The position numbers were made by a program, and so were the translations under genes. Below the pieces are notes generated by a model. That model had not been told where the DNA came from and ran no database searches. It saw nothing but the letters and a program-made list of their open reading frames with translations. Shown one piece after another: positions 2,717 to 32,221 of a stretch of 57,213 nt of DNA (positions within the stretch are counted from its first letter, which is position 1; each line of letters begins with the position of its first letter). The stretch is from a virus (taxonomy: Duplodnaviria; Caudoviricetes): positions 1 through 57,213 of IMG/VR virus record IMGVR_UViG_3300036828_000780; one strand, 5' to 3'.

Positions 2717-3040
2717 TTACTGCTTGGTCGCGTCATCCGGCAGCAGATCGTCGAGGGCGCGTTTTTCGGCCCGGTCCTTAAACTCGGCAAACACCGCATC
2801 CTCGGTTTGGGCCGCATCGAACCCGTCCTCCCAGGCGGCGTCGTTGCCAGCCTCCAGTAGTCGGGCGACAACCGCCTGCAGGCACTCGATCCCAAAACCG
2901 CGCGGATAGGCCGCCTGCAAATGGTGGACGAGAGCCGCGGTCAGCAGATCGATCTGCTCATCCCAGTCGAGGCGATCCAGCGCCTTGCCGAGCTCGGCGG
3001 TGGCGAGATCCCGGCGGGCGCGTTTGCTCAAGCGCGGCAT
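2717..3040 (-). CDS. Hypothetical protein downstream of integrase
   Basis: ATG at 3040 with AGGAG RBS; MPRLSKRARRDLATAELGK... Confidence 0.6.
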   Translation of the reverse strand: MPRLSKRARRDLATAELGKALDRLDWDEQIDLLTAALVHHLQAAYPRGFGIECLQAVVARLLEAGNDAAWEDGFDAAQTEDAVFAEFKDRAEKRALDDLLPDDATKQ

Positions 3041-4200
3041 GAGGCAACTCCTTTCGCGATGGTGTTCTGCTGCTGTTCCGCGCGGGCGCCTTTGGCGGCC
3101 GCGGCGATCCCCTGGTGGGCGAGCATCTCGCGGTTGATCATCGCCAGGTAGCGGCGCAATTCCTTCGAGCTCTTGTGCCCGGTCACCGCCATCATCGCGT
3201 CCTCGCTGGCGCCGCCGCCGGCGGCCCGCCGGCACCACGCCTTGCGCAGCCCGTGCATCGTCGCTTCCGGCGGCAGGCCGGCGGCGTCGCACCAGGTGCC
3301 GAACGCCGCGCCGAGACCGCCGGGGTGAGAGTACCCTTTGCCGCGATTGCTGATGATGTAAGTCTTGAGCCCGCACACCGAGGCGGCAATGGTGTGCGCC
3401 AGCGCGGGCTCGACCGGGATATGCACGAGGGCCCCGGTCTTTTGTTGGCGCAGTGTCATGATGCCCGCTTTGACCATGCCCGGCCCCATGCGGAAGACGT
3501 CCGAGATGCGCTGCGCGGTGTATAGCGGCAAGGCCATTGCGAGCCGCGCCGTCGAGCCGATCGGGTGGTGCGCCTCGTATTGGGCGACCCAGGCTTCCGG
3601 CCAGGTCTGGTGCCCGTCCTCGCTGTCGTCGTCGGCCGCCTTGGCGGGCGGCTTGTAGCCTTTGAGGCCGGTGGTCGGATCCTCTTTGATCAGCTCGACG
3701 GCGACGGCGTATTGCATCAACCCGCGCAACGCGACGAGCGCGTTGCGCCGGGTCGACGGCAACAACAGATCGAGCCGGGCGATGATGTCGCCGCGCCGCA
3801 GGTCGCTCAGCAGGCGGTGGCCGTCCTGCGCCCGGAACCGTTCGAGGATGCCGCGGCGGGTGCGCTGGGTTCCGTCGGAGAGCGGTTCGAGAAAATATTG
3901 GTTGCTCTGGTAATAGGCGGCGATCGCCGCGCTGATCGTGCCGGCTTTCGAGCGCTTCGCCTCGCCGATCGCGACCGGCTCGACCTTGCGCATCTCGGCG
4001 AGGTAGGCGGTCAGGAACTCGACCGAGTCCGGTTCGCCGGGCAATGCCACCGCCGGGTGTCCGGGCCGGCGAAAGTACCGCCGCACCTTGCCGTGGCGGT
4101 CGGTGAAGCGGTTGACGTGCGGCAGTTCCTTGCCCGCTTGATGGCGGGGTTTATTGACCTTTTGGCTTTCGTTTCCAATAATCATCGGGTACGGGCTCAT
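3028..4200 (-). CDS. int: Tyrosine recombinase / phage integrase
   Basis: DRHGKVRRYFRR arm domain; YTAQRISD (R), QQKTG (K), HGLRKA, VTGH and RRY catalytic motifs; start approximate. Confidence 0.93.
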   Translation of the reverse strand: MSPYPMIIGNESQKVNKPRHQAGKELPHVNRFTDRHGKVRRYFRRPGHPAVALPGEPDSVEFLTAYLAEMRKVEPVAIGEAKRSKAGTISAAIAAYYQSNQYFLEPLSDGTQRTRRGILERFRAQDGHRLLSDLRRGDIIARLDLLLPSTRRNALVALRGLMQYAVAVELIKEDPTTGLKGYKPPAKAADDDSEDGHQTWPEAWVAQYEAHHPIGSTARLAMALPLYTAQRISDVFRMGPGMVKAGIMTLRQQKTGALVHIPVEPALAHTIAASVCGLKTYIISNRGKGYSHPGGLGAAFGTWCDAAGLPPEATMHGLRKAWCRRAAGGGASEDAMMAVTGHKSSKELRRYLAMINREMLAHQGIAAAAKGARAEQQQNTIAKGVASCRA

Positions 4201-4378
4201 CCCAGGAGTTCGTGACCGGAGCTGGCGTCGCGTCGTTTGCTGCGGGTGACGCCAGTTCCAACTTTATGCGACCATCCGATCCGATTTCCACTCGCGCAAC
4301 TTTGTTGCCGGTCTGCTCGACGGCGCGGATCGCGGCGGCGACGTCGCGTTGGCGGAAGGTTAGACGATCGCGCGCCAT
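4151..4378 (-). CDS. Excisionase-like small protein
   Basis: TFRQRDVAAAIRAVEQTG..VARVEIGSDGRI...NSWDE, the type of small gene found just upstream of such integrases. Confidence 0.65.
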   Translation of the reverse strand: MARDRLTFRQRDVAAAIRAVEQTGNKVARVEIGSDGRIKLELASPAANDATPAPVTNSWDEPVPDDYWKRKPKGQ

Positions 4379-4403
4379 CAATTGGGCGATCGGCTAGTTG
4401 ACG

Positions 4404-4631
4404 TCAAGTGGCGTCAATCGCGAAGTCGGGCAGGGCGGCCAGCCGCTGGCGCAGCTGGGAGTGCGCGACCCGCTTGCCATCGAGCAACGCATGGTGCGGG
4501 CCGGCGCGATAGATGCGATGCCCGGCGCGCCGCGCCGCGATGATCATCCGGTGTAATCCCGGGTCCTCGGGGTGCGCGAGGCGGCGTTGTGCCGGGATGA
4601 TCAGCGGGAGCTCAAAGTCGCGGCCTGTCAT
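4404..4631 (-). CDS. Hypothetical 75-aa protein directly after array B
   Basis: ATG at 4631, MTGRDFELPLIIP...; the longer in-frame ORF runs through the non-coding array. Confidence 0.5.
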   Translation of the reverse strand: MTGRDFELPLIIPAQRRLAHPEDPGLHRMIIAARRAGHRIYRAGPHHALLDGKRVAHSQLRQRLAALPDFAIDAT

Positions 4632-4633
4632 CG

Positions 4634-5290
4634 GGCTCTGCCTCGCCTGCTTTGCCATGCCCTGCCTTGCCATGCCCTGCCTCGCCGTGCCGAGCCGCGC
4701 CGCGCCCAGCCTGGCCCGGCCAAGCCCGGGAAATTCGCTAAAACCAAATCCTCGCCTCGCCTCGCCTTGCCGCGCCGCGCCCAGCCTCGCCCGGCCAAGC
4801 CAAGCCTGGCGGGGCCTTGCCACGAAATCCGCTAAACCCAAATCCTCGCCTCGCCTCGCCTCGCCCAGCCCTGCCCTGCCCGGCCGCGCCAAGCGCGGCC
4901 CTGCCATGCCTTGCCGGGAAATCCGCAAAAACAAATCCTCGCCTCGCCTCGCCGTGCCTAGCCCCGCCGTGCCGCGCCTGGCCCGGCCACGCCGAGCCTG
5001 GCCGGGCCTGGCCACGCAATCCGCAAAAAACAAATCCTCGCCTTGCCGTGCCACGCCGCGCCGAGCCTTGCCTAGCGACGCCTCGCCCGGGAAAATCCGC
5101 AAAAACCAAATCCTCGCCTCGCCTCGCCTTGCCGCACCCGGCCGCGCCCAGCCCGACCTCGCCCAGCCACGCCCCGCCCCGCCACCAAAACAAATCCTCG
5201 CCTCGCCTCGCCATGCCAGGCCTGGCCGCGCCATTACATGCCGGGCCCCGCCACGCGCGGCCTCGCCGCGCCTCGCCGGGAAACTCCTGT
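4634..5290 (-). ncRNA. GGY-NN pentamer array B (7 units separated by GGATTT...TTCC hairpin-like linkers); putative guide RNA array
   Basis: Minus strand reads e.g. GT-GGC-CA-GGC-CC-GGC-CA-GGC-TC-GGC-GT...GGC-GA-GGC-GA-GGATTTGTTTTTGCGGATTTCC; units at about 5198-5279, 5114-5185, 5038-5089, 4939-5015, 4846-4917, 4752-4823 and 4634-4728. Confidence 0.88.
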
Positions 5291-5947
5291 TCACGCCGCC
5301 GCCGCGGGTTGCTGCGCGCGCCACAGCTCGACCAGCCGGTCCATTGCGTCGCGAAAATTGGCGTTGTCGTGCGGCCACATGTCCTGTTCGAGGAGCAGCG
5401 CCAGTTGCCGCGCGTAAAAAGTCGCCGGATTGCCGCCATAGTGGCGCATCGCCTCGATCTGGTTGGCCGACAGCCGCTGGCCCTTGAGATGCGCGAGCCC
5501 GCGCTTTAGGGCGATTGCTTGCCCTGTCGGTGCGTGGCCAAATCCGCGGGTGATGTCGTCGATCTTCGGCGGCGGTATGCGCACCAATTCGCTGAGCGAG
5601 ATGCGTTCGTAGCCCAATGCGGTGAGCCGGGCGATGGCGCTGCGCAAATCATACCCGCTGAGCGGCTGGCCGTGGGCTACGTTGAGCCGCACGGCGTCGG
5701 CGAACAGCTCGGCCTCGCTGGCGTAGGTCCGGGTTTCGACCTCGATTGTGTCGATGCTGAGCGTCTCATAGGCGGCGTTGCGGTGCCAGCCGTCGACCAG
5801 GCGCCGGGTGTGCGCCTCGACGACAAGCGGCGGGAAACGCGCGCCTGCATTGTAGGCGTCGATTAGCCGGCCCACTGTAATTGGGTCGAGGTGCGCGCGC
5901 GCCCGCAATGTCTCGTCGCACTGGATGCGATTACGCTTCATCTTCAT
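5291..5947 (-). CDS. ParB/Srx-like N-terminal domain protein between the two arrays
   Basis: GGAGG RBS; FPPLVVE..TRRLVDGWHRNAAY and RLNVAHG motifs. Confidence 0.8.
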   Translation of the reverse strand: MKMKRNRIQCDETLRARAHLDPITVGRLIDAYNAGARFPPLVVEAHTRRLVDGWHRNAAYETLSIDTIEVETRTYASEAELFADAVRLNVAHGQPLSGYDLRSAIARLTALGYERISLSELVRIPPPKIDDITRGFGHAPTGQAIALKRGLAHLKGQRLSANQIEAMRHYGGNPATFYARQLALLLEQDMWPHDNANFRDAMDRLVELWRAQQPAAAA

Positions 5948-5957
5948 CGCCTGCCTC

Positions 5958-6334
5958 CAAATCCTCGCCTCGCCTCGCCTCGCCCAGCCTTGCCAGGCCG
6001 TGCCCCGCCGGGCCATGCCCGGCCAAGCCACGCCTGGAATTCCGCTAAACCCAAAGCCTCGCCTCGCCGTGCCTCGCCGGGCCCCGCCTCGGCCCGCCAG
6101 GCCATGCATCGCCACGCCTTGCCCGCGCCTGGCCCTGCCCCGGAAATTCAATAAACTCAAATCCTCGCCTCGCCTCGCCCAACCCAGCCATGCCACGCCT
6201 AACTCCGCCCCGCCGTGCCCTGCCCGGGATCAATAAACTCAAATCCCCGCCTCGCCTCGCCTGGCCTCGCCCCGCCGTGCCGAGCCACGCCCGGCCAGGC
6301 CTAGCCAAAACAAATCCCCGCCTCGCCTTGCGCG
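5958..6334 (-). ncRNA. GGY-NN pentamer array A (short leader plus 4 units); putative guide RNA array
   Basis: Starts right after the stop of the Cas7-like gene; units at about 6245-6306, 6165-6226, 6059-6141 and 5965-6036; same GGCGA-GGCGA-GGATTT 3' handle. Confidence 0.88.
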
Positions 6335-7111
6335 TCAGCTCTGCTCATCAGGCGGCGCGCCGTCCCAATCCAGAACGCCGGCGGGGTCGACCTCATCGAG
6401 CCGGGCGATCTCGCCGCCCGGCGTGTAGGCCTGCCACGGCCCGTCCCCGTAAGCGACGCCGATCAACGCGAACCTGCCGAACCATCCCTTGCTCTTGCCG
6501 GGGCGGTAATCGCCGACCCCTTTGCGCTGACCGGCGTCGGCCATGATGTCGGGCAGGATTGTCGGGTTGGGCACGAGCTGCTCGTCGAACAGCAGCGTCA
6601 TGTGGCCGATTGCCCAGACGTTGAACCGCGGCCGCGCCCGCAGGATGCGCTGGCGCTGCACGACCGCCGGGCGGCGGTCGATCTCGTAGCTGGACAATGG
6701 CGCGAGGTCGGCCGGATTGAGCAGCGCGAGGAATTCCTCCCTGACCTCGATATGCGCCAGCCATGGCGCAATCGAGCCGCGCGACCCTTTCGGCGCCTTG
6801 AAGATTGTCGCCGCCTCAAGCAAGGCCAGTCTGAAGGCCAGACCGAGGATCGCAAAGTGGCCTTCCGCGGTGCGATAGACGCCGGCCTCGGCCTCCACTT
6901 CGGGTTCGGGAATGTTCTTGCCGCCGCGGGCGGCGGCCGGGGTCAGCATTGCCTGCGCGTTGTGCGTCAAGAGCGGGCTGCGCCCCATCACCGAGAGCCG
7001 CAACCGGGCGCGCGCCTCGGCTTCCGGCGGCAAGACAAACGGGATCGTGCAGTCGAGATCTTCGGCGGGCGGCGCCAGTTGTGGGGCGTTGCGTCGTGAG
7101 GCGTTGCTCAT
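6335..7111 (-). CDS. Stand-alone Cas7/RAMP-like protein (Vipr-like), putative RNA-guided filament subunit
   Basis: LSVMGRSPLLTHN (RAMP beta1 + H), AFRLALLEAA helix, IDRRPAVVQRQRILRARPRF thumb, C-terminal G-rich loop AGQRKGVGDYRP...GWFGRF. Confidence 0.8.
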   Translation of the reverse strand: MSNASRRNAPQLAPPAEDLDCTIPFVLPPEAEARARLRLSVMGRSPLLTHNAQAMLTPAAARGGKNIPEPEVEAEAGVYRTAEGHFAILGLAFRLALLEAATIFKAPKGSRGSIAPWLAHIEVREEFLALLNPADLAPLSSYEIDRRPAVVQRQRILRARPRFNVWAIGHMTLLFDEQLVPNPTILPDIMADAGQRKGVGDYRPGKSKGWFGRFALIGVAYGDGPWQAYTPGGEIARLDEVDPAGVLDWDGAPPDEQS

Positions 7112-7175
7112 TTTGGCGATCCTTTCGTGAATTCAGCCGATCGACTGGTCGGGGAAGGCCTGTCATCGCCCGGCG

Positions 7176-7388
7176 TCAATAGTAATCGTCGTCGGGGTCC
7201 TTCCATTGGACCGCGGTCGGCGCGACGCCGCGCGCGGCGGCGATCGCCTGGAGCATACGTGTGAAGCCGATATCGGCTAAGACCGCCTGGATCTGGTGGC
7301 CGTCTCTGGTCATCAACGTGACGGTGCGGCCGTCGACTAGGTCGCGGAAGGCGGCCTCATCGATGACGAATTTGCGGGGCGACGGCAT
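7176..7388 (-). CDS. Hypothetical protein
   Basis: Small ORF coupled to the upstream gene. Confidence 0.5.
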   Translation of the reverse strand: MPSPRKFVIDEAAFRDLVDGRTVTLMTRDGHQIQAVLADIGFTRMLQAIAAARGVAPTAVQWKDPDDDYY

Positions 7389-11440: not shown

Positions 11441-12042
11441 GCGGCGAGCTCGCGACTGCGGCGAAGCGACCACGGGGTCGGCCTCGGCTCGACGGGCCGC
11501 CCAAGCCCGCCAAGCGACCACGGGGTCGGCCTCGGCTCGATGGGCCGCCCAGGTCCCTGATCACCGCCAGACTACCGGCGGCCCTTAAAGCGCAAATCGA
11601 GCGCGATGCGCGGCGCGCGCATCGATCTGTCACAAAAGAATTCGAGCGTCGCCTCAGTGAAAGCTACGCTTCCGAAGAAAATTACGGTGGCCCACAAATG
11701 GCCGCGCTCTTTCGTGAATTGGGCGCGGCGGCATGGGCAATCGAAACGCGGAAAAATCGCGGCCCATGTTTCGAAGACTTCAAAACTTTTCATTTGGTCA
11801 TGTATAGGTGGCAGGAAATTATGCGGAGCCGGACGCCGCAGCCCACATGGGCCGAATTCGACTGCGCCAATTGCGGCATGCACATTGTCAGTCTCGGCCT
11901 GGTGGAGCCGCCGGCGCATCGGCAGTGCGCGCATTGCCAGTGGTTCGCGGGCTGGATCGACGATCCGCAATTGTGCCGCATCCTCGATCCCGACAATCGA
12001 CGCAGGCCTCCGCGCAAGGGGGGCGATGGCAGCGCGTCGTGA
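11437..12042 (+). CDS. AT-hook plus Arc/RHH-like DNA-binding protein with Cys-rich tail
   Basis: Tandem KRPRGRPRLDGPP (48-bp period duplication); TARLP.ALKAQIE.DA....RSVTKEFERRL. Confidence 0.65.
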   Translation: MSGELATAAKRPRGRPRLDGPPKPAKRPRGRPRLDGPPRSLITARLPAALKAQIERDARRAHRSVTKEFERRLSESYASEENYGGPQMAALFRELGAAAWAIETRKNRGPCFEDFKTFHLVMYRWQEIMRSRTPQPTWAEFDCANCGMHIVSLGLVEPPAHRQCAHCQWFAGWIDDPQLCRILDPDNRRRPPRKGGDGSAS

Positions 12043-13105
12043 GGCGGCCGAGCTCGGCTGGCGCCTCGGCGAGCGCATGCAGAGCCTCGCCGAGGAAATA
12101 CTGCCACGCGGCCGCCGCGAGGCGCGCTGGTGGCGGGTCGGCTCGTTGGCCGGGGAAGAGGGCCAGTCCTTGGCGATCGTGCTATGGGGCGCCCGGCAGG
12201 GGCATTGGCGCGATTACGCATCGGGCGATCGCGGCGACGCGCTCGACCTGGTCGCCGGCGTCGTGTGCGACGGTAATCTATTGCGGGCAATGGACTGGGC
12301 GCGCCAATGGCTGCGCCTGCCCGAGCAACAGCGGCCATTGCCCGAGCGGCGCGGCCCGCGGCGCACTGACGACGACGAATTCGCCGCCAAGCGCCGCACT
12401 GCGCTAAAAATCTGGCTCGCCGGCATGCCGCTGCAGCGCGGCGATGTGGTCTGGCGGTACCTGGAGGGGCGCGGCATCGATCTGGCGCGGTTGCCGCGCT
12501 TGCCCGGCGCGTTGCGTTGTCACCCCGGCCTGTGGCACTGGGAGCACAAATGCTACTGGCCGGCGATGGTCGCGGCGATCGCCGGCGCCGATGGCAAGCA
12601 TTGCGCCACGCACTGCACCTGGCTCGCCGAGCGCAACCTCGCTTGCGAGGACCGCCCGATGGTCGGCAAGGCGCCGATCGGCCAGGCCGCCAAGCGCACC
12701 CTGGGCGGTTATAGCGGCGGCTGCATTCGGTTGTGGCGCGGCGCTGGGCCGCGATCTTGGGACGAGCTCGACGGCGGCCAGACCCTAGTCATCAGCGAGG
12801 GCATTGAGGACGGGCTGTCCTATGTGACGCGGTTTGACCCGCGTTGCCGCCTCGCCGTCGCGGTGTCGCTGTCGGCGATGCTGGCGCTGGAATTGCCGCC
12901 GCAATTCGAGCGTGTGTGCATTCTCGCGCAATCCGATGCGCCGGGCTCCGCGGCGGCGCGCACGCTCGACCGCGTCATCGAGCGCTGGGAAGATCAGGGG
13001 CGGCGCGTCTTTACTGCAGCGCGCCACGCGATCGTCAAGGATCTCAATGAACTGATCACGCACCCGCTAATAAACACCGGGGGATTCGCAGGTGGCGGAA
13101 GATGA
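12026..13105 (+). CDS. TOPRIM-domain phage primase
   Basis: W.DYASGDRGDALDL; YLEGRGI; VISEGIEDGLS; AQSD. Confidence 0.85.
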   Translation: MAARREAAELGWRLGERMQSLAEEILPRGRREARWWRVGSLAGEEGQSLAIVLWGARQGHWRDYASGDRGDALDLVAGVVCDGNLLRAMDWARQWLRLPEQQRPLPERRGPRRTDDDEFAAKRRTALKIWLAGMPLQRGDVVWRYLEGRGIDLARLPRLPGALRCHPGLWHWEHKCYWPAMVAAIAGADGKHCATHCTWLAERNLACEDRPMVGKAPIGQAAKRTLGGYSGGCIRLWRGAGPRSWDELDGGQTLVISEGIEDGLSYVTRFDPRCRLAVAVSLSAMLALELPPQFERVCILAQSDAPGSAAARTLDRVIERWEDQGRRVFTAARHAIVKDLNELITHPLINTGGFAGGGR

Positions 13106-14585
13106 CAAGAAGGTTGTTAACTTCGACTTCTTTCAAGAGCGCAAAGCTACTCGCGACCGCGACCGCTACGAGGACGACGATGGCGGTGGCGGCGGCCCGC
13201 CGATCGGGCCGCCCGGTGGTGATGGCGCGACGCCGCGCGCGCCGTTCGGCACCGAGCTCATGCTCTCTCACGAGCTCAGTAAGGAGCTCGGCGACGATTG
13301 GATATGCGCTTGGCCGTCGAAAACCTGGTACCGCTGGGATGGCCGGCGCTGGGATGGCGCCCGCGGTGATTACCTGATCCAACAGATCGCGCAGCAGGTC
13401 GCGCTGCGCCTTGCGGTGTGGATTGAGGAAAAGGATAAGCGCACGGCGCGGTCGCTCTGTCGCTCGGCGACGATCAGTGGCGCGATCACGTTGATTTCGT
13501 CGCAGCAGCGCCACGCGGTATATGATGGCGAGCTCGACCAGGAGGACGACTGGGAAATCAACACGCCCGACGGGCTGTTGTATCTCAAAACCGGGTTTCT
13601 GGCGCCGCATGTGCGCAGCCGCATGCTGACCCGGCTCACTGGCGCCTCGCCGCGCCCCGACGCCGAATGTCCGCGCTGGATGCAGTTTCTCGACGAGGTC
13701 ACCGGCGGCAATCGGGGCCTGCAGGAATATTTGCGGCGCATGGCTGGTTACTTTCTCACCGGGTCGATTACCGAGCATAAAATCTTTTTTCTCTACGGCA
13801 AATCGCGCACCGGCAAGACGGTGTTTCAAAACATCTTGGTCGAATTGTTGGGCGACTACGCCATTGCCGCGGCGATGGATATGTTCATCGTTGCCGAGGG
13901 CCAGCGGCACCTGACCGAGCAGATGGATTTATGCGGGCCGCGCCTGGTCATTGCCAGTGAGACGCAAGAGGGCAAACGCTGGAATGACGCACTGCTGAAA
14001 CAGATCGCCGGCGGCGATCCGATGCGGGCGCGCAAAATGCGCGAGAACACGGTGCAGTTCCGGACGCACTGTAAATTGCTATTGGGCGGCAATCACCGGC
14101 CGCGCATGCGCCCGGGCGACGACGCAATGCGGGCGCGGTTTATCGTGCCGCCGTTCGGCTTTCGCCAGCCGGTGCTCGACAAGGATCTCACCGACAAGCT
14201 CCGCGGCGAGCTGCCCGGGATTTTCAAATGGGCGATGACCGGCGCCCTCGAATTGCACAACGGGGCCAGTCTCGACCTGTCGGCCGCGCCGCTGGTGATC
14301 CGTGAGGCGACCGACGAATATTTCGAGTCGCAGGACACGATAAACCACTGGATCGACGCGTGTTGTGAAAGAGGCGGCCGCGAGTTTTTCGCGACGACCG
14401 AGGAGCTCTATAAAAGTTTCAAGGGCTGGTGCGAGCGCGCCGGTGATCGCTGGCCGCTGCCGATGTTCATCTTCGCGTCGCGGCTCGCCGATGTCGACGG
14501 CGTCGAGCATCATCGGCCGAGCGGTCGCAAGGCGCGCGGGTTTGTCGGGCTGCGGCTCAATGATCGGCAGGACGACTTTATGTGA
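13092..14585 (+). CDS. P4-family (D5-type) SF3 helicase/primase
   Basis: Walker A GKSRTGKT; RLVIASE; KQIAGGD; NHRP...DDAMRARF. Confidence 0.92.
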   Translation: MAEDDKKVVNFDFFQERKATRDRDRYEDDDGGGGGPPIGPPGGDGATPRAPFGTELMLSHELSKELGDDWICAWPSKTWYRWDGRRWDGARGDYLIQQIAQQVALRLAVWIEEKDKRTARSLCRSATISGAITLISSQQRHAVYDGELDQEDDWEINTPDGLLYLKTGFLAPHVRSRMLTRLTGASPRPDAECPRWMQFLDEVTGGNRGLQEYLRRMAGYFLTGSITEHKIFFLYGKSRTGKTVFQNILVELLGDYAIAAAMDMFIVAEGQRHLTEQMDLCGPRLVIASETQEGKRWNDALLKQIAGGDPMRARKMRENTVQFRTHCKLLLGGNHRPRMRPGDDAMRARFIVPPFGFRQPVLDKDLTDKLRGELPGIFKWAMTGALELHNGASLDLSAAPLVIREATDEYFESQDTINHWIDACCERGGREFFATTEELYKSFKGWCERAGDRWPLPMFIFASRLADVDGVEHHRPSGRKARGFVGLRLNDRQDDFM

Positions 14586-18643: not shown

Positions 18644-19258
18644 ATGGGTCGGCAAACGACATGGACGCCGGCGAGCGTCAGGCGGGCGGTGGAGCTCGGC
18701 TTGGAGGGGTTGGGCCCGGCCGCGGTCGCGCGGCGCCTCGGTGTCCCGCCCGGCCGGGTCAGCGCGCTGTTCTCGCGGTTGCGCGCCGAGGACGAACCGG
18801 CGCCCGCCCCGGCTCGCGCGCCGCGGGGGCGCAAGCCCAGCCCGTGGGATGCGCCGCCGGAGCGCCGTGAGCGGGTGCTCGACCTGGTCGCGCAGGGCGT
18901 CACCTTTGCGGTGATCGCCGAGCAGCTCGGCACGACCAAGAGCGCGATTGCCGGCCTGGTAGGGCGAGCGCGCGCCCAAGGCGAGGCCCGCGCGCATATC
19001 AAGGACGTGCGGGCCGAGTTGGCGGCCGCCGAGCGCGGCGAGGCGGTGCCGGGCTTGGTGGAGCGGTTGCGCTGGGATGTCGTGATGGCCGGCGGCTGCC
19101 GCTGGATTTACGGGCACCCGCGGCCCGATCCCGGCGAGGTGGCCGATTGGCATTGGTGCGGCGCGCCGCGGGTCACCGGCTTGTCCTATTGCCCGGCGCA
19201 TGCGCTTGCCGCCTACCAGCGGACCCCGCGGGAGACGCCGCCGGAGACCGGGGTATGA
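18644..19258 (+). CDS. GcrA-like cell-cycle regulator (two HTH-like segments)
   Basis: IAEQLGTTKSAIAGLVGR; CRWIYGHP...WCGAP....SYCPAH. Confidence 0.8.
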   Translation: MGRQTTWTPASVRRAVELGLEGLGPAAVARRLGVPPGRVSALFSRLRAEDEPAPAPARAPRGRKPSPWDAPPERRERVLDLVAQGVTFAVIAEQLGTTKSAIAGLVGRARAQGEARAHIKDVRAELAAAERGEAVPGLVERLRWDVVMAGGCRWIYGHPRPDPGEVADWHWCGAPRVTGLSYCPAHALAAYQRTPRETPPETGV

Positions 19259-31537: not shown

Positions 31538-32221
31538 ATGCCGTTTGTCGAAGGCTATCTCGACGAGAAAATCAGCGTTGGGCCAGGACGCCCGTCACAC
31601 CCGATCGCGCCGGGCGGTCCGGTCGATCCCGGTTATGGCGTGCCGGGGCCGGTCGATCCCGGTTATGGCGTGCCGCTGCCGCCGGTGACGATCTGGCCGA
31701 GCCCAGGGACGCCAACGCACCCGATCGTGCTGCCGCCGACCTATCCGGTCGCTCCGGACCAGGGGCTGCCGCAGCCGCCGACCGTCTGGCCGCTGCCGCC
31801 GCATCCGGTCGATCCCGGCTATGGCGTGCCGGTGCCGATCGGGCCTGATCACCCGATCTACTATCCGCCGGTCGGCCCCAATAATGATCTGCCGTTGCCG
31901 CCCGGCGCCGTCTGGCCGCCGTTGCCGCCGTACGTCTCGACCGGCCCGGTCGGTCAGCTGATGTGCTTTGTGTGGATCCCCGGCATCGGCTACCGCTGGA
32001 CAACGATCGACGTCAACCTCAAGCCGGAGCACCCGATCGTGCCAGGACCGCCGGTTTACCCCGCGCATCCGATCGCGCCGGGTGGAACGCCGCCGACGAC
32101 GCCGCCGCCAGGGACACCGACGCATCCGATCGCGCCCGGCGGCACGCCGCCGACCCAGCCGGGCACGCCCCCGGCGCCGACGCATCCGATTGCGCCGACG
32201 CCGGAGCCCAAGCGCAGTTAA
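31538..32221 (+). CDS. Proline-rich repeat protein
   Basis: AGGAG RBS; PVDPGYGVP and P(T/S/A)HPIAP repeats. Confidence 0.75.
   Translation: MPFVEGYLDEKISVGPGRPSHPIAPGGPVDPGYGVPGPVDPGYGVPLPPVTIWPSPGTPTHPIVLPPTYPVAPDQGLPQPPTVWPLPPHPVDPGYGVPVPIGPDHPIYYPPVGPNNDLPLPPGAVWPPLPPYVSTGPVGQLMCFVWIPGIGYRWTTIDVNLKPEHPIVPGPPVYPAHPIAPGGTPPTTPPPGTPTHPIAPGGTPPTQPGTPPAPTHPIAPTPEPKRS

Follow-up and report, generated by a model that had tools for sequence, protein, structure and literature searches.

The window analysed here, the whole 57,213-nt IMG/VR record IMGVR_UViG_3300036828_000780 (completeness 96% by CheckV estimate), represents a tailed phage (Caudoviricetes) from soil with a G+C content of 68%. The locus at positions 4640-7111 can be assigned with high confidence to the VIPR (Viral Interference Programmable Repeat) systems, with about 11 minus-strand vrRNAs, and the complete statement, namely a VIPR system in which two guides, denoted A2 and A4, are written against primases of the archaeo-eukaryotic primase (AEP) type, is probably correct. 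Because the VIPR architecture has already been described in 2026 preprints, the system is of a known kind rather than a new one, and the target class that it adds is the primases.

According to the preprint that introduces them (bioRxiv 10.64898/2026.04.26.720920), VIPR systems pair a small Vipr protein of RAMP fold with an accessory gene, and their vrRNAs are composed of 9-16 YNNGG repeats with hypervariable NN dinucleotides and a constant 3′ tail. The NN bases recognise double-stranded DNA with one target base skipped per unit, and the skipped base usually coincides with the codon wobble position; seven types are distinguished, and the characterised examples come from the E. coli phage SUSP1 and a Pseudomonas fulva prophage (type II) (10.64898/2026.04.26.720920). 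A structural preprint describes a Vipr filament on the vrRNA that forms a triplex with the target. The targets named in these preprints are satellite recombinases, lysogeny regulators and rival vipr genes; in particular, the VIPR system of SUSP1 silences the excision recombinase of its F5 satellite at the active-site motif (bioRxiv 10.64898/2026.10.15.759431). Neither “primase” nor “ParB” occurs in the main text of the first or the last of these three preprints (0 occurrences each), the supplements of which may already hold such cases.

The locus and the gene that ends its gene string comprise the following features, in minus-strand order:

6335..7111, minus strand: vipr gene (P0003, 258 aa), RAMP/Cas7-like protein, the presumed vrRNA-binding effector
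5950..6335, minus strand: array A, a tail-only remnant (6311-6335) followed by four vrRNA units
6228..6306 (approximate ends), minus strand: vrRNA A1, guide TA CT CG GT TC AC GG GA CA
6141..6227 (approximate ends), minus strand: vrRNA A2, guide CG AG AC GG GG TA GT AT TG TG
6035..6140 (approximate ends), minus strand: vrRNA A3, guide AA GT GA AT CT GG GA GG CC GA AC
5951..6037 (approximate ends), minus strand: vrRNA A4, guide CA GT TT CG AT CC GG AC CT AA TG
5291..5947, minus strand: ParB-like gene (P0001), the presumed accessory (vap) gene, between arrays A and B
4640..5290, minus strand: array B, seven vrRNA-like units
3028..4200, minus strand: tyrosine integrase (PF00589, E 3e-9; phrog_1 integrase, E 2.4e-22), at the end of the minus-strand gene string

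The plus strand between 4640 and 6335 is a chain of NNGCC pentamers that reads GGC-NN on the minus strand, the strand of all neighbouring genes. In a scan of the complete window, GCC triplets spaced at 5 nt formed 14 runs of four or more on the plus strand, every one of them within 4654-6306, and no GGC runs with the same spacing were found on that strand. The chain is divided into vrRNA-like units of about 71-106 nt each, the head motif of which was detected 11 times in the forward orientation, all within 4746-6332, and not at all in reverse or in the control. Each of the 11 units contains about 9-16 pentamers in which GGC is kept and NN varies, both between the units of the window and in comparison with the units of a related locus, L132; vrRNA A3 additionally contains one 6-nt unit and two degenerate units. 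The run of each unit ends with two to four CGAGG pentamers followed by a tail of approximately 20 nt, ATT(T)G.GTTTA..CGGATTTC, the sequence of which is kept in eight units of the window and seven units of L132, and the minus-strand units remain in the YNNGG register when stepped back by fives from each tail. The repeat architecture is real and restricted to this locus. Whereas the tail of SUSP1 is reported to form a pseudoknot, the tail in the present arrays is conserved in sequence without a predicted consensus fold (RNAalifold, 0 pairs across the window and L132 units). In the minus direction, the order of the string is the 258-aa gene, array A, the ParB-like gene, array B, a 75-aa open reading frame (ORF) and the tyrosine integrase. 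No Rfam family matched at E<=1 within 4300-7200, no sigma-70-like promoter was found at the locus, and terminator-like sites there are fewer than the shuffle mean.

Two other interpretations of the repeats were abandoned. Protein-coding or pentapeptide repeats were set aside because the unit lengths are not multiples of three and 5-nt repeats are open in any frame, and a TRAP-like ring protein that binds GGC triplets was dropped after Vipr and the VIPR preprints emerged.

The protein encoded next to array A supports the assignment. P0003 belongs to no Pfam family and matches phrog_4652, for which the function is unknown, but its AlphaFold2 model (pLDDT 81.6, pTM 0.75) folds like the CRISPR protein Cas7/Csm3, to judge from the predicted structure: in a Foldseek search of the PDB, 85 matches were obtained at E<=0.001, the best being chains of type III-A Csm and type VII CRISPR backbone subunits (E 1.7e-6). 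The TM scores against such Class 1 subunits (Csm3/Cas7; 8wfx_I, 6xn3_F, 6ifn_F) are 0.40-0.55 at sequence identities of 9-16%. A further parallel with Class 1 CRISPR is conceptual, namely a protein filament by which guide-target pairing is interrupted at regular intervals; unlike in those systems, CRISPR repeats are absent from the locus, only 2 bases of each 5-nt period are informative, and no cas genes were recognised among the six neighbouring ORFs scanned. The 33 homologues of P0003 that were identified have in common a C-terminal glycine-rich motif, DAGxRxGVGDYRP...G.FGRF. The three nearest vipr loci, from a Xanthobacteraceae metagenome-assembled genome (MAG; 67% identity), an alphaproteobacterial MAG and a Burkholderiales MAG, all retain the order vipr, GGY-NN array, ParB-like gene, with different NN bases. 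On a broader scale, a pattern of ten consecutive GCCNN pentamers was found in at least 120 IMG/VR contigs, and in 34 of 120 such array loci, chosen by the bare pattern, a Vipr homologue was detectable by tblastn. Features in common with VIPR are the small RAMP/Cas7-like protein with a glycine-rich loop, the neighbouring intergenic arrays, in which runs of 9-16 YNNGG units have hypervariable NN bases and close with a constant 3′ tail, the phage-borne pairing of vipr with one presumed accessory gene, and wobble-aligned matches with a 1-nt skip and without self-targeting. The locus differs from the characterised systems in the alphaproteobacterial host clade, the 68% G+C of the phage, and a presumed accessory gene that is ParB-like and is placed between two arrays. 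The anatomy, the conserved gene order and the fold of the model are direct observations, as are the guide matches and their controls presented below.

In a brute-force scan of position choices, the peptides listed in the initial annotation were recovered when the minus-strand NN dinucleotides were taken as codon positions 1 and 2 and the third base was skipped, which is the same rule as the published 1-nt skip; when the NN bases were simply concatenated and translated, none of these peptides was obtained. The interval 5965-6226, to which they had been assigned, begins at the first NN of A2 and ends with the final constant GA of A4, with the units numbered in the minus direction. Under this rule, A1 reads Y-L-R-V-S-T-G-(D/E)-(H/Q), A2 (NN at 6226-6180) reads R-(S/R)-T-G-G-(Y/stop)-V-(I/M)-(C/W/stop)-(C/W/stop), A3 reads (K/N)-V-(D/E)-(I/M)-L-G-(D/E)-G-P-(D/E)-T, and A4 (NN at 6036-5985) reads (H/Q)-V-(F/L)-R-(I/M)-P-G-T-L-(K/N)-(C/W/stop). 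Eight of the 16 dinucleotides decode ambiguously, and the initial annotation had picked one residue each time. After masking of the arrays, no guide had a skip-1 match above 75% in the window, so that no self-targeting was apparent.

The evidence that A2 is directed against Prim-Pol comes from the identity of the matched genes. In a sample of 301 genomes from the family of the nearest Vipr relative, three places with 17-18 of 20 matching bases lie in Prim-Pol genes (PF09250), at the motif ...GVD.R..GGYVIWWPA.G..., with the A2 site inside the domain and PF09250 scores of 93.4, 80.9 and 35.5 bits for loci L169, L170 and L168, respectively (cut-off 22.8). As an independent control, 24 loci from 19 of 61 genomes were picked by PF09250 alone; in this set A2 reached 18/20, compared with a shuffle mean of 14.6 and a maximum of 17, and none of 200 shuffled guides attained 18. 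The other ten guides were ordinary in the same loci, the nearest exception being A4 with 17/22, a value reached by 12 of 200 shuffles. The signal also depends on the skip: A2 scored 14-15 matches with other skip lengths, and overall a skip of one base gave 18 matches compared with 13-15 for skips of 0, 2 or 3. An exact scan of IMG/VR with 18 bases of A2 gave a single match, in an AT-rich contig and out of codon register, which was judged to be chance. The Prim-Pol gene matched by A2 in L225/L228 (G036:C7:831146-831579) is split, its two Pfam matches lying in different frames; this copy is decayed and lies beside a large serine recombinase.

For A4, the corresponding family is the RepB-type primases. 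Ten of the 27 places matched in the 301 genomes at up to three mismatches were retrieved, having been picked for the reading R-x-P-G-T, and in nine of these the same motif, (H/R)-x-x-R-[IVL]-P-G-[TL]-x-N-W-P, recurs in homologous ORFs with an upstream DxD, whereas the tenth falls in a glycosyltransferase; among the first ten A4 loci listed, six matches are in ORFs of 22-147 aa and appear chance-like. The best matches are 20/22, in L146 and L147, with 18-19/22 in six further primase-type ORFs. The motif lies inside the RepB_primase domain (PF16793), which Pfam shows in fusion with a helicase domain of the AAA_25, DUF5906 or DUF3987 family. PF16793 exceeds its cut-off of 24.3 bits in L141/L146 (29.5), L147 (33.1), L148 (27.7) and L155 (33.7), remains under it in L153 (23.5) and L152 (20.5), and has no match in L149, L151, L154, L187 and L188; all of the latter five except L151 carry AAA_25, DUF5906 or DUF927 helicase domains. 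No exact match to A4 was found in the scan of IMG/VR. In metagenomes, the 20-base A4 pattern is matched exactly in two contigs (21/22 when the first dinucleotide is included), and both sites lie at ...ARVLRMPGTLNWKY... of homologous primase-helicase proteins of 880-974 aa with DUF927; in L188, one of these exact matches, the N-terminus matches phrog_2478, “DNA polymerase/primase”, over residues 60-218, A4 site included. In a second control set, of three loci from three of 61 genomes picked by PF16793 alone, only A4 stands out, with 18/22, and 0 of 1000 shuffled guides reach this value.

Several observations weigh against this assignment of the two guides. The raw counts are not enriched: A2 matched 29 places in the 301 genomes compared with about 80 for its control, and A4 matched 27 compared with 21 for the reversed pattern, and accordingly the primase-directed signal rests on which genes are matched and not on how many. 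Four of the A2 matches, each 17/20, fall at one conserved chromosomal site (L171-L174, in genomes G167, G199, G227 and G278) that reads ...QRRSGGYV.CG... in ORFs of 47-77 aa, a few kb from an RpoB-like gene, and is not a primase, so that recurrence alone can stem from orthology. Only two of the 24 Prim-Pol loci reach 80% for A2 and only one of the three RepB loci does so for A4, which implies that the guides fit subfamilies and not the whole class. The best guide matches in the sampled genomes are 85-91%, and none is perfect; the two metagenome contigs with exact A4 sites have a G+C content of 56%, compared with 68% in the phage, and for this reason may belong to other hosts. The host assignment itself rests on a single indicator, the nearest Vipr homologue; for A3 no target was found; and the lack of PF16793 in the window (see below) carries little weight because the same search found this domain in 0 of 14 control genomes.

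The A2 and A4 totals, which are no higher than those of the reversed controls, the eight ambiguous dinucleotides, and the best match of A3 (21/22), which lies in a housekeeping gene and looks like chance, are what would be expected if the likeness to primases were coincidental, that is, if short ambiguous peptides resemble some motif or other and the real targets are elsewhere or do not exist. Such a coincidence is nevertheless highly improbable. The families were named from the decoded peptides before the search and then recovered by Pfam annotation of the matched genes, PF09250 on the best matches of A2 and PF16793 on those of A4; none of 200 and none of 1000 shuffles, respectively, equals the observed match in the family-picked loci; one predicted guide stands out per set, at a skip of one base only; the two exact metagenome matches of A4 share one motif of homologous primase-helicase genes; and three of the four array A guides fall on catalytic motifs of hallmark genes of mobile elements. 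The confirmed A1, A2 and A4 matches all keep the reading frame, and the base that they skip is the wobble base. The likeness of A2 and A4 to primase motifs thus exceeds chance and that of A3 does not, and on the sequence comparisons A2 and A4 are, in our estimate, quite likely primase-directed. Accordingly, the proposal of the initial annotation that array A guides target AEP-type replicases is supported for A2 (Prim-Pol) and A4 (RepB-type) and not for A3, which had been counted among them.

A3 gave no signal in the Prim-Pol or RepB control sets and 0 exact matches in IMG/VR (with 22 or 18 informative bases) and in metagenomes. The 14 matches at the family level (301 genomes) and 11 at the order level (251 genomes) are in unrelated contexts, mismatch-tolerant hits in a LysR-type gene of three genomes among them; the family-level excess over the reversed control (14 compared with 1) probably arises because the pattern resembles common G+C-rich codons in one antisense register. 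The best match, 21/22, is antisense in the RNase E gene of L232 (8030-8061; G359:C14), at R-L-K-T-I-A-Q-D-L-D-V. This genome belongs to another family, the skipped base is at codon position 1 and so is not wobble-aligned, and the homologous site in five Xanthobacteraceae rne genes matches A3 at only 12-15 of 22 bases. With a chance probability estimated at about 0.035 from the ratio of 3- to 1-mismatch matches, before correction for the number of guides tried, the RNase E match is probably fortuitous.

A1 lies outside the interval 5965-6226 of the initial annotation. At up to two mismatches it matched 26 places compared with 10 for the control in 151 genomes, and 16 of the 26 read Y-[LV]-R-V-S-T-x-x-Q. 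Five of eight loci examined are serine recombinases with PF00239 (Resolvase), matched on the catalytic-serine motif; four of these contain PF07508 and PF13408 (Recombinase and Zn_ribbon_recom), and the fifth PF07508 and PF20552 (HTH_62). By these sequence matches, A1 is aimed at large serine recombinases. In reading codon positions 1-2 of the catalytic serine motif of a rival recombinase, it parallels SUSP1 acting on the F5 satellite, from which the present system differs in having two further guides that appear to be aimed at replicative primases (Prim-Pol and RepB-type AEP). The guides of array B were less informative: B4 had 0 matches in 101 genomes, B3 had 6 compared with 9 for the control and no shared context, and none reached 80% in 1.5 Mb of loci except for one match of 21/26 in a doubtful frame. 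Several array B guides decode to strings reminiscent of tyrosine-recombinase motifs. The suggestion that targets are sorted, with mostly replication genes in array A and mostly recombinases in array B, is therefore loosely borne out for array A by its two primase guides and is weakened by A1, which makes this array mixed, and by the lack of convergent matches for the two array B guides tested, B3 and B4.

The phage itself replicates with different enzymes, encoded by the following genes:

11606-13105, plus strand: DUF7146+Toprim_3 primase-like protein, replication gene of the phage
13092-14585, plus strand: D5_N+DUF5906 helicase, replication gene of the phage

Neither PF09250 nor PF16793 gave a six-frame match in the whole record, in agreement with the original observation that the AEP class has no copy in this phage, which uses a TOPRIM primase and a D5 helicase instead. 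Of note, the Prim-Pol gene matched by A2 in L169 precedes a helicase with D5_N and DUF5906, the families to which the phage helicase also belongs, and A2 sits on Prim-Pol, the part that the phage lacks. The host is probably a Xanthobacteraceae-like alphaproteobacterium, as suggested by sequence similarity; a 204-aa protein encoded at 18644-19258 in the window, with helix-turn-helix domains and a match to the C-terminus of the cell-cycle regulator GcrA (E 1.9e-10), fits an alphaproteobacterial host.

The same VIPR system could alternatively serve as an anti-satellite or anti-plasmid weapon, directed at elements with a primase and an integrase that parasitise this phage, as had been suggested from the decoded motifs. 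The published precedent points in this direction, given that in E. coli the VIPR system of SUSP1 targets the recombinase of its satellite, and so do the A2-type matches in L168 and L169, which adjoin recombinases and where no structural genes have been seen so far. L169 combines a partial tyrosine integrase, Prim-Pol and the D5_N helicase beside chromosomal TctC genes; L168 has a large serine recombinase and a split Prim-Pol; and L170 lies at a contig start. These elements are decayed or cut off, and because L169 and L170 end at contig ends, structural genes may lie beyond the sequenced part. The A4-type elements are more readable. In L146, L147, L148, L149, L152 and L154, integrases lie at most a few kb from the primase gene, and structural genes are found near the target in L148 (portal, capsid and TerL), L155 (portal and capsid), L152 (TerL) and L146 (HK97-gp10-like protein and tape measure protein), whereas the L188 contig, with its exact A4 match, encodes its own DNA polymerase as well as an exonuclease, a helicase and a head protein. 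The readable A4-type elements are thus four prophages and one phage, not satellites. For A4, the anti-satellite or anti-plasmid idea finds no support in these contexts, although plasmid collections were not searched, and for the system in general it is unlikely. Unlike the satellite targeted by SUSP1, the elements matched here are full prophages or phages wherever the context can be read.

The preferred reading is therefore a VIPR system with two primase-directed guides that acts against rival temperate phages. Its expression, RNA processing, binding and silencing are modelled here on the work on SUSP1. By this analogy, a minus-strand operon transcript would be cut into vrRNAs; Vipr protomers would polymerise on the GGY scaffold, one per GGY; and the NN dinucleotides presented in this manner would pair with double-stranded DNA with every third base skipped. 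Binding would silence transcription of the matched primase or recombinase genes of rival temperate phages. The guides of array A appear to be set in codon register on catalytic motifs, NN occupying positions 1-2 and the wobble base being skipped: A2 would be written against Prim-Pol D.R..GGYVIWWP, A4 against H-V-x-R-I-P-G-T-L-N-W of RepB-type AEP primase-helicase fusions, and A1 against Y-L-R-V-S-T-G-x-Q of large serine recombinases. In this way, prophages and phages that compete for the same host may be prevented from replicating or excising, and the replication of the phage itself would be spared because its own module consists of the Toprim primase and the D5-type helicase.

If this interpretation is correct, escape from guides placed on catalytic motifs would come at the expense of enzyme function. 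In the case of SUSP1, escape would similarly require amino acid changes in the active site, as argued in the corresponding preprint (10.64898/2026.10.15.759431). VIPR would be extended from phages of enterobacteria and Pseudomonas to a soil phage of alphaproteobacteria that has a high G+C content and a ParB-like partner, and replicative primases would join the list of published targets. The pairing of what is targeted with what is not encoded would also provide a simple testable rule for predicting competing mobile elements in uncultured communities. A more general and distinctly speculative extension, which we put forward only tentatively, is that VIPR guides of this clade are family-level silencers, and that the choice of a Toprim primase with a D5 helicase has been co-adapted with the guide set in a form of warfare among temperate phages through incompatibility of replication modules. 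Because only codon positions 1-2 of nearly invariant catalytic motifs would be read, a single guide of some 20 bases could then disable a whole subfamily of AEP primases or serine recombinases, whichever rival carries them.

The ParB-like gene between the arrays deserves separate consideration. P0001 matches phrog_1033, “ParB-like partition protein” (E 1.6e-8), and no Pfam family at E 0.01. Each of the three nearest vipr loci has a ParB-like homologue after the array. Among 120 IMG/VR array loci, only 5 contain one; therefore, most such arrays have other partners. The ParB-like protein may add a step that is absent from the characterised systems, such as spreading along the bound DNA or cutting it. 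Its position exactly between both arrays suggests a further alternative, in which the arrays are DNA sites, that is, centromere-like or regulatory 5-bp iterons bound by the ParB-like protein that they flank, in a partition locus of a plasmid-prophage; tandem units of approximately 75-105 bp do recall the repeat centromeres of some plasmids. This possibility is extremely improbable, given that GGY-NN arrays also accompany Vipr homologues in loci without a ParB-like gene detectable by tblastn, such as that of Mycobacterium phage DRBy19; that hypervariable NN bases, decoding in frame to foreign-gene motifs, would be superfluous in binding sites; and that the architecture matches that of vrRNAs reported by the preprints to be RNAs, on experimental grounds, in another clade.

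Some minor features of the arrays and their relatives were noted in the course of this analysis. The last unit of each array (4640-4744 and 5948-5964) has no full tail and enters the ribosome-binding region or start codon of the next gene: the tail of A4 abuts the start codon of the ParB-like gene, and the last unit of array B, without a standard tail, runs into the start of a small ORF at 4404-4631. Because these units run directly into the start region of the next gene, the last vrRNA of each array may be processed in concert with translation of the gene that follows.

The same NNGCC array is carried by 21 records of cluster F mycobacteriophages detected by blastn. In DRBy19 (NC_051650.1), the array, at about 36.6-36.9 kb (L011 2980-3240), is partly annotated as “gene 51, hypothetical protein”, and the adjoining gp52 (199 aa) is a Vipr homologue (hhalign probability 99%, E 3e-18). 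Coding sequence 51 of this phage is thus probably a vrRNA array and not a protein gene. Elsewhere in the window, positions 31619-31675 contain a perfect tandem duplication of 30 nt (1.9 copies, 100% identity).

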